Part shown: positions 3,620-18,155 of the stretch, in pieces
How positions within the stretch are numbered: position 1 is the first letter of the stretch
How the letters are laid out: every line of letters begins with the position of its first letter
Source: a virus
Lineage: Duplodnaviria; Caudoviricetes
Reading direction: 5' to 3' (one strand)
DNA length: 64,000 nt
Virus record (IMG/VR): IMGVR_UViG_3300021255_000122
Location: 1-64,000 of that record
Notes under the pieces: generated by a model
Database searches by the model: none
What the model saw: the letters and a program-made list of their open reading frames with translations, nothing else
What the model was told of the DNA's origin: nothing
Made by a program: the position numbers and the translations under genes

Positions 3620-4180
3620 TTAATAGTCAAAATCTTTATTCAAAGCCTCTTGTAATGAAATCGCACCGTAGTTTCCTGCTTTCCAATTGTTGATAAAATT
3701 GTATATCGCCCACGCAAAATCTTCGGTTACTATGTTGCTTTTCTTTTTGTACTTTTCAAATTCGGCATTTGCGTCATACCCTAACACATCGTTGCAAAGT
3801 TGGTCGCAAATTTCGTTGTACACGTTTCCGTTGTGGCCTTTCACCCAATTGTATGTTATGTGCTTAATGTTTTTATTTTCAGCACGTACCTTGCGCCAAA
3901 CCTTAAACAAATCTTCGTTGCTTTTTTGTTGCCATTGTCCAGACAAAGTATTAAGTGCATATTGCGAATCGGAATAAATATCCACCTCGTCGGCATCATC
4001 GGGCAATCGGTTAAAAGCCGCAATAATCGCTTTTAGTTCGGCGCGGTTGTTTGTTTCCTTTGTAATCTTGTACGCATTCCTTTCGATTTCCGCGTTTTCG
4101 CCATTCAATATAACATAGGCAAACGCACCCTCGTCGTGTTGTTTTGAATACGCACCGTCCGTATAAATCGTATATCTCAT
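3620..4180 (-). CDS. rnhA: ribonuclease HI
   Basis: Motifs YTDGA, TNNRAEL, YSDSQY, WVKGH..NVYNEICD give the RNase H catalytic D-E-D-D set. Confidence 0.92.
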   Translation of the reverse strand: MRYTIYTDGAYSKQHDEGAFAYVILNGENAEIERNAYKITKETNNRAELKAIIAAFNRLPDDADEVDIYSDSQYALNTLSGQWQQKSNEDLFKVWRKVRAENKNIKHITYNWVKGHNGNVYNEICDQLCNDVLGYDANAEFEKYKKKSNIVTEDFAWAIYNFINNWKAGNYGAISLQEALNKDFDY

Positions 4181-4274
4181 AATTGTTATCTATTTATATA
4201 TATTTATATTTATAATTATATCTTTAGAATTTTATTATGTAAAAACATACATAGTTTTGATTTTTGAACTTTGG

Positions 4275-4722
4275 ATATTGCACAAAATTCCCAAAGTACA
4301 TTTTTACTGTACTTAGGAATTGTGCGTTTCTGGTAGTCCGTCATCCGTCACCCCATCAACCACACACAATAGCGAATTGCAAACACTATTGATACCTGTC
4401 CTTCCCGATTTGCTTTCGGTCGCACAAGCGGACAAGACACTTTTTCAAGCGTACCCTCACTTACTACCTTAGTGCTATCCCTCTTGGTAGTTTAATGTCC
4501 TTGGAATCGAGGTGTGACAACCGATACAATTTTCTCTTTCGGTATTTATGGACGTTCAAATCCCAAGTAAGTGAAATGGGAAATGCCAACCTTATAAAAG
4601 CAACAATCCCTATCAAGTAGTGCGGATACTTAATAGGGAAATGTCTATATAAAGTTGGCTCAAATGCCGTACTTTCCAACAATGTCCGTGAATCCTACAA
4701 GTTCCGCACACTTAATTCACGG
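4275..4722 (-). ncRNA. candidate ~440-nt structured RNA or long leader with complementary hairpin loops
   Basis: Starts right after the promoter at 4725-4732; multiple stems; loops GUGCGGA and UCCGCAC are complementary; no convincing ORF. Confidence 0.5.
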
Positions 4723-4724
4723 TG

Positions 4725-4755
4725 CAAAGATAGAACAAAGTTTTAAACACACAAA
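4725..4755 (-). promoter_or_regulatory. Bacteroidota housekeeping promoter (-33 TTTG, -7 TATCTTTG)
   Basis: Reverse complements of caaagata (4725-4732) and caaa (4752-4755), 19-nt spacer. Confidence 0.8.
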
Positions 4756-14852: not shown

Positions 14853-14960
14853 AACTTAATCTCCTATCTTTTAAATTAAACAATTAATAAATAAATAAAA
14901 ATTGCACCCCGTCCGCTGTGCAAGAGCGGTGCATTGCTTAACTCACGGGGTGTTGAAAGT

Positions 14961-15221
14961 TTAAACGACGTTGTACCAGCTATATTTGTCGAAATTGCCA
15001 GCTTTATAGTCAACACCTAAAGCGCGCAAACGGCTCTTTGTGGTCTGTGTCGGCCAACCTGCAAACGTCCAATACTTAACTCAGTCTATAATGCGAAAAA
15101 TGGCATTATTGTGGAGGTACACCGTCAATTCGCCGTTAAAGGTTTCTACTCGCGTGTTCCCGTTCGCCAAATTTTTGCGATTTTTTACGGCCTCGCACAT
15201 GGCTTCCTCAATCTTTCTCAT
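14961..15221 (-). pseudogene. phage gene interrupted by an in-frame TGA at 15081-15083
   Basis: MRKIEEAM...FRIID*VKYWTFAGWPTQTTKSRLRALG...; frame continues 39 codons to a TAA. Confidence 0.65.
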
Positions 15222-15261
15222 AGTTGTAAAATTTAAATAAATGAATAAATAAAAATATAAA

Positions 15262-15306
15262 AAATTTGTGGACGTGTGCAAAACCGCCTCGCACAAATAA
15301 AACGCT
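15262..15306. repeat. partial copy of the dispersed palindrome
   Basis: tttgtggacg...cacaaataaaacgc shares arm and core words with copies 2 and 3. Confidence 0.45.
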
Positions 15307-15406
15307 ATTTTCTTGCATGTATCATAAATAAAGATTCTGCCGTTTTGTCGTGTATCTTTGTTTTGCAACCGCCGCGGCTCTGTTCCCAGTGCTTCCGTTT
15401 TGGTTG

Positions 15407-15414
15407 CAAAGATA
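15407..15414 (-). promoter_or_regulatory. Bacteroidota -7 promoter element TATCTTTG
   Basis: caaagata on plus; upstream of the leftward accessory genes; -33 element not clear. Confidence 0.6.
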
Positions 15415-15539
15415 CGAAAACGTGAGGTCTTCGCGTGTATGTGATATTTTGCAATTAAATCCGTTTTCCGTCCTCCGTTCTGCTTTCGTTTATACATTTA
15501 AGCGGATACGAAAAAATGTAAATTAGTCTATTATCTAAA

Positions 15540-15866
15540 AAAATTAGTCGGCTGGTTGCTGCCTGTAGGCCGTTGCTGCTCACTCGCCCCACCGTTAGGT
15601 GGTTTTAACGCCGCATAATATAAAGCGTTGCGAGGCCGAGAAAATCTGGCTTTTGTGTTTGTTTACAATTCCCTGTTAAGGTTCACGACCTACGTCGGCG
15701 GCATGTAAGTACTGCAAAAGCGGTTCTGCTCGATTTGCATTCCCTTCGGGTATCATGCTCCGCGCATATCCCGTTGGCAATTTAAGACCTCCCTGAAAAA
15801 CTAATTCCATGTACTCGCTTGCTTGAGGGTGATGCTTGCGACCCTGTGGGGTGATTTCTTAAATCT
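15540..15866 (-). ncRNA. candidate ~330-nt structured non-coding RNA
   Basis: Follows the -7 element at 15871-15878; GC-rich island in AT-rich surroundings; many nested stems; no ORF of 60 aa or more. Confidence 0.6.
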
Positions 15867-15870
15867 GATG

Positions 15871-15878
15871 CAAAGATA
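15871..15878 (-). promoter_or_regulatory. Bacteroidota -7 promoter element TATCTTTG
   Basis: caaagata on plus. Confidence 0.65.
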
Positions 15879-16139
15879 ATGCATTATTTTTATAGTTGTT
15901 TATTTTCTTAACACTTTTAACTAAAACATATATGTATTTAATATTTGTAAACAAATAAGCGGTTTAAATGTGAAAATATCTTTAATATTGCACGTACACG
16001 GGAATATATTGCACATTTTCCGCTTTTTGTGCATTTTTTCCATTTGGCCGTGAATTTATGCGTTATTTGCAATAATGTACACGATACGCGCACGCATATT
16101 ATAACTTTCGAATTATCCGATTTAAGCCCGTTTTCCTTT

Positions 16140-16214
16140 CGCGTGTTGCGTTTATTTGTGGCAAATGTATAATTTATCCACTAATAAATAAATCTCCGTT
16201 TTGTGTACGTACAC
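16140..16214. repeat. dispersed palindrome, copy 4 (inverted partner of 16807-16880)
   Basis: cgcgtgttgcgttta...gtggcaaatgtataatttatccac...ttgtgtacgtacac. Confidence 0.75.
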
Positions 16215-16243
16215 AGTGCAAATTCCAGTTAGTGCATGGACAC

Positions 16244-16297: not shown

Positions 16298-16645
16298 TTA
16301 CACAAACTTAACTTGGCCGTTTACTTCGAGCGTAACAGCCTCCTGTTGCATTTCGTTTTTGATGCGCTCGGCAATTGCATAAACCTTTGCAAAGTTTTCT
16401 TGCAACTGTGCCGAACTGCAAAAAGAGTAAACAATTGTTACCTCCTCTAATACCGTTTCGCCGTTTGCACATACCCAGCCGCCAACGGCCTTCGATGCTG
16501 TTGCACCGCCAAACATCTGAGCCAGTTCTGTTATTGTGCGCTTGACTTGTGCACTGTTGTCAGTTTGTTCGTTTACATTTACTGTAGAGGGTACATAAAT
16601 GCTAACTTTGCAATCTAAATCAAATTTAAATTTTAAGGTCTTCAT
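16298..16645 (-). CDS. small protein with a probable PII-like/ferredoxin fold (DUF3574-like)
   Basis: FGGATA..AVGGW...GETVLEEV...QEAV pattern; has its own promoter and terminator. Confidence 0.6.
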   Translation of the reverse strand: MKTLKFKFDLDCKVSIYVPSTVNVNEQTDNSAQVKRTITELAQMFGGATASKAVGGWVCANGETVLEEVTIVYSFCSSAQLQENFAKVYAIAERIKNEMQQEAVTLEVNGQVKFV

Positions 16646-16694
16646 AATTTTTAATTTTAAGTATAAATAAATAAAATGTTAACTAATTCTTTTG

Positions 16695-16702
16695 CAAAGG
16701 TA
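16695..16702 (-). promoter_or_regulatory. Bacteroidota -7 promoter element TACCTTTG
   Basis: caaaggta on plus, 50 nt upstream of the 16645 start. Confidence 0.7.
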
Positions 16703-16806
16703 ATCATTTTATTTATATAATGTATTTGTATTTTTATGTTATAAAACATATTTCCGATATTTAACATTGTGTTCGCACACAATTAGTAAATGCAAACAAA
16801 TGTTAT

Positions 16807-16880
16807 GTGTACGCACACAATGCGTTAAATTTATACCAGATATATAACTTATCGTTTTTTAGATTTAAACGCAACACGCG
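16807..16880. repeat. dispersed palindrome, degenerate copy (inverted partner of 16140-16214)
   Basis: Minus strand begins cgcgtgttgcgttta and ends ttgtgtgcgtacac. Confidence 0.7.
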
Positions 16881-16930
16881 CAAATTATAGCGTTTTTCGT
16901 TTTTCTTGACACTTATTTAATACTTTTGCG

Positions 16931-17504
16931 TAACTACTTGATTTATAGCGTTTTACGTGTTGTTTTGCTAAAAGGTACGTTAATTGCTTGATTTACAAAG
17001 AGTTACGATTTTTCGCGCTTTAATAGTGCTTCATAAAGTATTGAAAATCAATTATTTAGCGCAAACACCTTTGTTATTTAGAATTTTCTAAATAAGGAAA
17101 ACACCTAATTTATTGCACAAATTTACTTTAAATGTGCAAAACGTGAAACAATTGTTTTTGTTACGTGAAACATTTATAAAACTTTGCTTTCAAAAATAGT
17201 TTTCCTTTTCTTTTATATTCTTTTCTTTTCCCTTACTTAATTATATTATGCTTTATTATATCGTATCTTTATATTTTATATTTATATTCTTTAGTATTGC
17301 TTTATATATAGCTTTATTATAATATATATTTATTATTATAATTATATTATATTATGTAATGCGCTTTTTTCGCGTTTTGCGCCCGTCGTTTGCATCCGCT
17401 TCGCACTTCATGCCGTGAAATATGGCATAACACCAGAAATAAACGTTTTTATTTTTGCAAGACGAACGTTTTCAAAACGTAACACGTTGAAAATCAAAAC
17501 GTTA
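16931..17504. promoter_or_regulatory. four IHF-consensus sites (WATCAANNNNTTR) at 16931-16943, 16981-16993, 17046-17058 and 17492-17504
   Basis: All four match the consensus exactly; two on each strand. Confidence 0.6.
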
Positions 17505-17830
17505 CGCAATTTTAGAAGGGGGAGGGGGTAAAACTCCCAACTTCTTTGTGTGGTGCATACCTTTTATTTTGAAAAAAAGAAAATTTCCGAAAAAAAGAAA
17601 AATTTTCAAAAACGAAAAACGAAAAATTTCAAAATTCTTGTATAATATAAATATTAATATTATTTTTGTCAAGTCTAAATATATTATATATATATTATGA
17701 TGTTTTGTTTTACGTGCGCGTGCGCATACGTGCGTATATATATACATATTAATTAATATCTTAATAATAAGGAAATCTTTATATATAAAGAAACCTTTAT
17801 AAATATTAAGAAATTCTAATATTTTGTTGT
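17260..17830. other. divergence point: AT-rich low-complexity tracts flanking a G-tract, A-tract repeats and an RY tract; candidate origin or packaging/terminus site
   Basis: gaagggggagggggtaaaactccc at 17515-17538; tandem gaaaaaaagaaaaattt; tacgtgcgcgtgcgcatacgtgcgtatatata; gene orientation flips here. Confidence 0.5.
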
Positions 17831-17835
17831 TTTTG

Positions 17836-17866
17836 TTTGAATATTAAAAATAATTATATACTTTTG
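17836..17866 (+). promoter_or_regulatory. Bacteroidota promoter (-33 TTTG, -7 TACTTTTG)
   Basis: 19-nt spacer; heads the rightward operon. Confidence 0.8.
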
Positions 17867-17909
17867 TGGTTGAATTTATATATATTTTTATTTTAAACTT
17901 TATATTTTT

Positions 17910-18155
17910 ATGAAAGCAAGATTATTACGAAAGTTACGGCGTAGATATTCGCGCAAGTATGCGATTCGCCGTTGGTCTGGTGGTTGGTGTGTTGTATGGG
18001 GTGCAAGCGACCTTGACCGTTTGCGTTATTCCACCCTTGACCGTGCAAAGATTCAATTTCGCGAAATGGTGCGTGACGACATTATGGCTTACGTTGTCAA
18101 GTTCCGCAACCGTCTTTTTTACTTGAACCGCAAAGTTACTTATTACCCTTGGTAG
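17910..18155 (+). CDS. small basic hypothetical protein
   Basis: First ORF after the promoter; Arg/Lys-rich. Confidence 0.7.
   Translation: MKARLLRKLRRRYSRKYAIRRWSGGWCVVWGASDLDRLRYSTLDRAKIQFREMVRDDIMAYVVKFRNRLFYLNRKVTYYPW

Follow-up and report, generated by a model that had tools for sequence, protein, structure and literature searches.

What is specified by a GC-rich stretch of about 330 nt that follows a promoter box in a phage genome and in which no reading frame is found? An earlier note on this DNA had proposed an undescribed structured phage RNA on the minus strand, near the divergence point. The stretch lies in the window analyzed here, the first 64 kb (64,000 nucleotides) of the 80,227-bp IMG/VR virus record IMGVR_UViG_3300021255_000122. 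The GC-rich island, its promoter, the absence of an open reading frame (ORF), and six of the proposed helices stood up to comparison with homologues, whereas five further helices did not, and the U-run that had been placed after the last stem proved not to be universal.

The 80,227-bp record has direct terminal repeats, a terminase, and a portal and was judged to be a complete phage genome. Among the products encoded in the window are a large terminase, an SPP1-type portal, a primase-helicase, an RNase H, a resolvase, HNH endonucleases, and a radical-SAM protein. Of the cultured phages, Bacteroides phage C3_41T2LP, with B. uniformis as its host, is the closest, and the terminases are 53% identical. 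A single related record (n = 1) was traced to project PRJEB21624, presumably a cattle-rumen study, and rumen projects are indicated by some of the record names of the RNA-carrying contigs.

Promoter box, genomic setting, and absence of a reading frame

The GC content of the island, on the minus strand, is 0.50 to 0.52 at 15550-15850 versus 0.23 to 0.41 in its flanks, and the island begins 5 to 8 nt past the TATCTTTG box (Table 1). This box immediately precedes the RNA, and TAnnTTTGCA stands at an equal distance in 11/11 homologous copies, behind three different upstream sequences, in agreement with the proposed promoter. TAnnTTTGCA is the -7 promoter motif of the Bacteroidota, as known from Bacteroides promoters, and such boxes precede many other genes of the window. 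Transcription would be expected to start at about 15863-15870.

Table 1. Features of the RNA locus in window coordinates, listed from 5' to 3' on the minus strand
Feature	Position	Strand	Description
Promoter box TATCTTTG	15871-15878	-	Bacteroidota-type -7 box, read from sequence
RNA core	15539-15870	-	332 nt in the window, 268-332 nt in homologues; R1 match of 363 bits
Domain 1	15779-15865	-	9- to 11-bp closing helix, GAUUUAAGA.. with ..UCUUAAAU; 2 covarying pairs
Domain 2a hairpin	15742-15777	-	CC..GGG-AUAUGC[GCGGA]GCAU-CCC..GG; helices 6 and 7, 5 covarying pairs
Domain 2b	15637-15738	-	Single strand, 16-bp long-range helix, apical extension
Domain 3	15578-15636	-	CUCGC/GCGAG around AACGC-UUUAUAUUAUG-GCGUU
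3' tail	15539-15577	-	AGCAACGGCCUACAGGCAGCAACCAGCCGACUAA; near-invariant; motif GCAGCAAC twice; U-run follows in the window
Probable 3' extension	15470-15538	-	AGAUAAUAGACUAAUUUACAUUUUUU, then hairpin CCGCUU[AAAUGUAUAAACGA]AAGCGG; kept in 11/11 copies

The island had been described as free of ORFs, and this was confirmed: no reading frame is kept among the homologues, and no codon periodicity was seen. The 44-aa ORF at 15676-15810 has lost its ATG or gained an early stop in the copies on contigs L019, L028, L002, and L030. Variable columns fall into the three codon phases as 57/47/47, that is, without 3-periodicity, and the longest open stretches differ in frame between homologues, so that the region does not behave as protein-coding sequence; in L028, one frame is stop-free over 114 codons. 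Folding of the single sequence was nonsignificant (minus strand, z = -1.7; plus strand, z = -0.2), and the case for a structured RNA therefore rests on covariation. The consensus fold described below includes 73 G-U cells, which would be A-C mismatches if the opposite strand were read. These cells, the position of the promoter, and the fold z-scores together identify the minus strand as that of the RNA.

The real upstream neighbor of the RNA is a 115-aa gene (16298-16645), and the real downstream neighbor is a 46-aa Kyano_Gp96-like ORF (15081-15221, minus strand). The 138-aa ORF listed at 15081-15497 is mostly spurious, since the family match covers its last 46 residues only. The 46 aa of the Kyano_Gp96-like gene correspond to profile positions 1 to 46 of 110, and the corresponding proteins of relatives have 86 to 95 aa (L018's second place, L025, and L032); the gene is possibly truncated in the window phage. 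Downstream of the RNA, the operon runs leftward through the Kyano_Gp96-like gene, an AAA+ ATPase gene, DUF7192, and onward. No RNA-binding protein or reverse transcriptase was recognized among 30 ORFs of the early region in Pfam and PHROG scans.

The noncoding region at the divergence point (about 2.5 kb; 15230-16225 and 16650-17950) is 75 to 95% conserved among six phages, while the genes within or beside it (16298-16645 and 14900-15225) are 30 to 45% conserved or absent. It contains a 1.2-kb tract of 13 to 30% GC at the divergence point. Because this whole region outconserves the flanking genes, conservation by itself is not specific to the RNA; covariation is. A long inverted repeat, almost perfect over some 80 nt, lies upstream of the RNA promoter at 15951-16030. 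On the plus strand, it gave weak, chance-level matches to miRNA models, and on the minus strand, a U-rich stretch comes after it; the repeat may be a terminator of transcription of the upstream gene or an operator.

Homologues and consensus fold

In public assemblies, 375 relatives of the neighboring AAA+ ATPase were found, and their contigs were searched for copies of the RNA; copies were present on L018, L019, L020/L021, L026, L031, L032, and L034. In pattern scans of IMG/VR, the only real matches were the window's own record and G001, and six 16-mer matches as well as L027 were rejected as fortuitous similarities within coding DNA. When metagenomes were scanned with the invariant 3' tail, three loci were returned, of which L028 and L030 were real. 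L029 (AUXO016503342.1), a 1.3-kb metagenome contig, was left out: it carries two 31-nt pieces identical to the RNA (the domain 1/2 border and the 3' tail), 850 nt apart and in opposite orientation, and is probably chimeric. Ten full-length homologues were thus available from related phage contigs, making 11 sequences with that of the window. All 11 copies lie upstream of the same AAA+ ATPase operon and on the same strand, and model R1 gave 11 full-length matches of 257 to 379 bits, all behind a TAnnTTTG box.

Searches beyond these contigs were negative. The element had no blastn match in 50,697 GenBank phage records, and R1 did not match the cultured Bacteroides phage C3_41T2LP or records G003 and G004. 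Neither nhmmer nor R1 found a match on L003, L004, L005, L022, L025, L033, or L040. Neither a relative of the neighboring ATPase nor the 3'-tail motif turned up among 185,579 prokaryote genomes, which gives no hint of a counterpart in host genomes or of a prophage copy; the RNA was found in phage contigs only. R1 also failed to match 4180-4755 of the window (minus strand), a candidate promoter-driven RNA upstream of the RNase H gene (3620-4180), which is therefore not a paralogue of the RNA at 15539-15870.

A distant member was recognized in L023/L024. With filters off, R1 aligned end to end with L023 3381-3682 at 16.6 bits. L023 keeps the closing helix of domain 1 as GGUUUAAGG/CCUUAAAC, with two further compensatory pairs. 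It also retains the AAGCGAG..UACA strand, the GGG/CCC helix, and, complete with the AGCCAG bulge, the long helix. In this very divergent copy, domain 1 is the best-kept part, and the 3' domain differs.

RNAalifold, applied to six and then to eleven sequences, gave a branched consensus fold with six branch points, which was scored on a model-guided alignment of 11 distinct sequences. The fold has 89 pairs, and 95% of its 955 cells are paired. Compensatory double changes were found at 27/89 pairs, compared with 13.4 ± 2 in column shuffles (0/500 shuffles reached the observed number) and with 1 to 8 pairs in a control in which partners were slid by 1 to 3 columns. The changes are spread over nine helices, and the same helices, with 24 covarying pairs, were recovered from a MAFFT-only alignment that had not been fitted to the model. 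Since only 11 or 12 sequences, from two or three sublineages, were compared, part of this covariation signal reflects shared ancestry, and an all-against-all covariation screen of columns was too noisy with 11 related sequences. The covariation is nevertheless strong for 11 sequences, and the outcome that would have spoken against a structured RNA, its absence, did not occur.

In domain 1, the comparative data support the closing helix AUUUAAGA/UCUUAAAU of the earlier note as well as AGGGU/ACCCU (15841-15845 with 15826-15830; 2 covarying pairs). The latter is crossed by CGC (15838-15840) with GCG (15816-15818), which also has 2 covarying pairs. Since both pairings covary, they suggest a pseudoknot, which we regard as probable only, given the few sequences. 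The domain further contains an invariant AAGC..GCG..UACA stretch and a small hairpin (15794-15809) with 3 covarying pairs.

The hairpin GGG..AUAUGC[GCGGA]GCAU..CCC that forms domain 2a was likewise supported by the homologues, and its apex has been rewritten with pairing preserved in L026, L002, and L030. Domain 2b opens with the invariant single strand GCAAAUCG. Its 16-bp long-range helix, helix 9, pairs CGAGCAGAACCGCUUUUG (15715-15732) with CAAAAGCCAGAUUUUCUCG (15637-15655), has 5 covarying pairs, and carries a conserved AGCCAG bulge; within it, UUUU/AAAA is replaced by UCAU/AUGA, UCGA/UCGA, and GCCG/CGAC. Two pairings proposed previously, UGCAAA/UUUGCA and UCGGC/GCCGA, were not supported, as their bases pair in this helix. 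The apical extension (15663-15708) is variable and ends in a conserved hairpin, AGGU[CGUGA]ACCU, which takes the place of the suggested CGAC[GUAG]GUCG. All 7/7 pairs of helices 10 and 11 covary, and 45 nt of the apex are cleanly deleted in G001/L002 and L030. The possible long-range pairings GAGUAC/GUACUU and GCGG/CCGC found no support, being broken in L020, L026, and L031.

Three proposed elements of domain 3 held. Helix 14, CUCGC/GCGAG, has 3 covarying pairs and occurs in the variants UUCAC/GUGAA, CUCAC/GUGAG, and UUCAA/UUGAA; helix 15, AACGC/GCGUU, shows one-sided (G-U) changes only; and CCACC[UAAC]GGUGG (15590-15602) is an 18-nt inserted hairpin, present as an option in the window and L028 only. 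GCC[UACA]GGC is invariant among the homologues. In the 3' tail, 3 of 35 nt vary among the 11 sequences. A pairing of tail GCAACC-A-GCC with leader GGC-GGUUGC was rejected by eye, since the leader changes in L026 and L028 and the tail is constant.

The U-run reported after the last stem follows it in 8/11 copies and is missing from L032, L002, and L030, and a terminator scan made no call at the 3' end of the RNA. Farther downstream, all copies keep AGAUAAUAGAC, ACAUUUUUU, and a hairpin whose loop, AAAUGUAUAAACGA, is invariant; covariation of this 3' hairpin is modest, with 4 double-change pairs, a number attained in 16/500 shuffles. In L033, the sequence that is common to L028 and L034 ends at the RNA start and resumes at window position 15479. 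Because the foreign sequence of L033 spans this interval, the exchangeable module would extend over about 15480-15870. The proposed size fits the core of about 330 nt, but the module probably continues some 60 to 70 nt past the end first assigned to it, which may bring the RNA to about 390 nt with the 3' hairpin included.

Between the RNA and the first gene lies a second TATCTTTG promoter (15405-15412, minus strand), conserved in 8/11 copies and degenerate in L026, L028, and L031. The leader that follows it (15330-15412, minus strand) contains a conserved hairpin, UUGCAACC...GGUUGCAA, with the near-invariant loop AGCACUGG(G/U)(A/G)ACAG, which occurs also in L003, L022, and L023, contigs that lack the A-type RNA described here; this could represent either an independent small RNA motif or a leader that regulates the ATPase operon. 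In L020 (3590-3700) and L031 (3205-3320), some 100 nt of additional, inserted sequence separate the 3' hairpin from the second promoter.

No Rfam family reached its gathering score anywhere in the window (Rfam 15; 4,227 covariance models). At E ≤ 10, nothing was found within the element in a search of 15200-16200, and only chance miRNA and snoRNA matches, outside the element or on the wrong strand, were found for L034 and L002. The earlier note had recognized no tRNA, tmRNA, or RNase P RNA; in keeping with this, ARAGORN found no tRNA or tmRNA genes in the window, and no RNase P model matched at E ≤ 10. A hallmark of RNase P RNA is the P4 pseudoknot, formed by the universally conserved CR-I and CR-V strands. 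CAGAACCGCUU is faintly CR-V-like, but it pairs in the covarying helix 9. 6S RNA, including its Bacteroidales type, is a single rod-like hairpin of about 180 to 200 nt with a central open-promoter-like bubble, unlike the branched RNA of the window, which no 6S model matched. The pRNA of the phi29 family is likewise structured, transcribed from an early promoter close to a landmark of its genome, and diverges in sequence among relatives with its architecture kept, as do the A-type copies and L023. However, pRNA measures about 120 to 174 nt and belongs to protein-primed genomes with a phi29-type packaging ATPase, whereas the genome described here has terminal repeats and encodes a large terminase of the classical kind together with an SPP1-type portal.

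With no Rfam match and with covariation present, the interpretation of the island as an undescribed structured phage noncoding RNA is supported. The data give good support to a new RNA family, kept in at least eleven related, uncultured tailed phages of the Bacteroidales type with genomes of about 80 kb and without a match among catalogued families. A published csRNA catalogue (Fremin et al. 2023, PMC10690425) admitted only entries with 3 or more IMG/VR regions, and the mean length of its models is 67 nt. In the comparison of the window with G001, the 5' half of the RNA shows 83% nucleotide identity versus 54% amino acid identity for the ATPase. Selection appears to act on the RNA itself, which outconserves its protein neighbors and gains or loses whole hairpins cleanly.

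Possible functions

The reading that we favor, and to which we assign a probability of roughly 0.5, is that of a stand-alone RNA that acts in trans by binding a protein. An RNA of about 330 nt, or about 390 nt with its 3' hairpin, would be transcribed on the minus strand from its own TAnnTTTG promoter, within the conserved noncoding region beside the divergence point. The consensus fold has three parts: a 5' domain with a multihelix junction and a possible pseudoknot, a central part with a long helix and a dispensable apex, and a 3' domain ending in a nearly invariant single-stranded tail. The folded RNA would bind a host or phage protein and serve as a scaffold or a decoy in early infection, with the invariant tail and the junction strands as its recognition surface; recognition of a macromolecule fits the long invariant unpaired stretches. 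An independent unit is suggested by the terminator-like hairpins upstream, by the separate conserved promoter and leader before the next gene, by the exchange of the module as a block in L033 with both flanks kept, and by the insertion after the RNA in L020 and L031. Antisense action is disfavored because complementarity in the 80-kb genome is at chance level, with none longer than 15 nt elsewhere and a number of 11-mers near chance. Counting against this reading are the lack of a convincing intrinsic terminator, the absence of the U-run from 3/11 copies, the degenerate second promoter box of L026, L028, and L031, and the negative outcome of the search for an RNA-binding protein or reverse transcriptase among the 30 ORFs.

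The weak or absent terminator, with none called by the scan, also fits the main rival, which we hold to be rather unlikely: a cis-acting leader of the early leftward operon that works by attenuation or by processive antitermination in the manner of put or EAR elements, or that is cut off afterwards. HK022 put, EAR, and riboswitch-like leaders are likewise promoter-proximal, sense-strand elements upstream of an operon, and the window RNA shares with them a conserved junction and possible pseudoknot features. At 11/11 loci, the RNA lies on the same strand as the operon and directly upstream of it, and in L026, L028, and L031, the downstream genes may need read-through from the RNA promoter because the second promoter box is degenerate. 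However, in 8/11 copies, a conserved second TAnnTTTG promoter with a hairpin leader of its own precedes the first gene, and the distance from RNA to gene varies by more than 100 nt. A riboswitch or attenuator would be expected directly upstream of its gene within one transcript; most copies have the second promoter and the variable spacer in between, and the scan called no terminator, although read-through may occur. L033, L022, and L005 have the same downstream genes with unrelated sequence at this place, so the RNA is exchanged independently of the operon. Moreover, known put and EAR elements are several times smaller than 330 nt.

An RNA of a replication origin appears quite improbable. The transcript, or else the structured single strand, would prime replication at the origin, form an R-loop there, or determine replicon specificity in the manner of ColE1 RNA II/RNA I, which are likewise structured, several hundred nucleotides long, and near an origin, here a putative one. 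This reading would account for the differences in the module among related phages, since incompatibility determinants are exchanged as modules, and it draws on the location of the RNA within the 2.5-kb noncoding region that is more conserved than its flanking genes, next to the 1.2-kb AT-rich tract (13 to 30% GC) at the divergence point, and on an AT-rich stretch 3' of the RNA. Yet transcription is directed away from the AT-rich tract, and the frequent G-U pairs argue for structure at the RNA rather than the DNA level. In contrast to the ColE1 system, no antisense RNA or promoter for such a partner and no RNase H processing site were seen; the primase-helicase gene is 10 kb distant, and nothing ties the site to replication initiation.

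A smaller analogue of ROOL and GOLLD, an ornate RNA that would form homo-oligomers through conserved loops and so assemble itself into an RNA-only particle, seems similarly doubtful. The window RNA resembles ROOL and GOLLD in being phage encoded, probably stand-alone, and multidomain and in occurring mainly in metagenomic phage contigs; its promoter and long invariant unpaired stretches would suit such an RNA. ROOL and GOLLD are described in a preprint as phage- or prophage-associated RNAs that form RNA-only cages (bioRxiv 10.1101/2024.12.08.627333). However, with about 580 and 800 nt, respectively, they are some two or more times the size of the window RNA (330 to 390 nt) and usually lie beside tRNA genes, of which none adjoin the RNA or occur in the window. 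Their Rfam covariance models did not match, the hosts here are of the Bacteroidales type, and no covarying loop-loop pair was found. Finally, a decayed gene remnant or an alignment artifact, to which the single-sequence z of only -1.7 and the 114 stop-free codons of L028 might point, is close to refuted by compensatory changes in 9 helices that persist in the MAFFT alignment, by the lack of a common frame and of 3-periodicity, and by conservation above that of the neighboring proteins.

Other occupants of the locus

At the equivalent place, L033 and L022/L005 carry unrelated sequence that is likewise promoter driven, GC rich, and ORF poor, and R1 with filters off found nothing in the equivalent slots of L022 and L033. 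The other occupants lie at L033:3125-3740, L003:4270-4700, L022:3492-3800, and L005:258-640. The region upstream in L033 is common to L028 and L034 up to the RNA start, after which divergence is complete. L005 and L022 share one type, with a 183-nt block of 89% identity, and their two-sequence alignment contains four compensatory pairs (e.g., GUCGG/CCGAC versus GUCCU/AGGAC); L033 and L003 start with a common hairpin. Because relatives carry unrelated RNA-like sequence behind the same promoter, the place can be regarded as a swappable slot for RNAs. We tentatively raise the further idea, which we think unlikely as it stands, that the phage group maintains a dedicated RNA slot. A conserved promoter region and a conserved downstream boundary would enclose unrelated RNA cassettes: the A/D type here, B in L033/L003, and C in L022/L005.

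Large folded RNAs without known relatives are rare and have repeatedly been a route to new biochemistry. The clear comparative signal and compact size of the present RNA suit structure probing or cryo-EM, and since the lineage has a cultured distant relative on Bacteroides uniformis, the RNA is open to experiment. If the occupants of the slot were functional alternatives, they would constitute an RNA-based, rapidly diversifying determinant, which could serve in counterdefense, as a decoy for host immunity, or could govern superinfection or replicon specificity when phages compete. To our knowledge, accessory genes that encode proteins are known in such a role, large folded RNAs hardly at all. 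A slot with different RNAs in sister phages suggests that exchangeable structured RNAs may be among the accessory functions of gut and rumen Bacteroidales phages.
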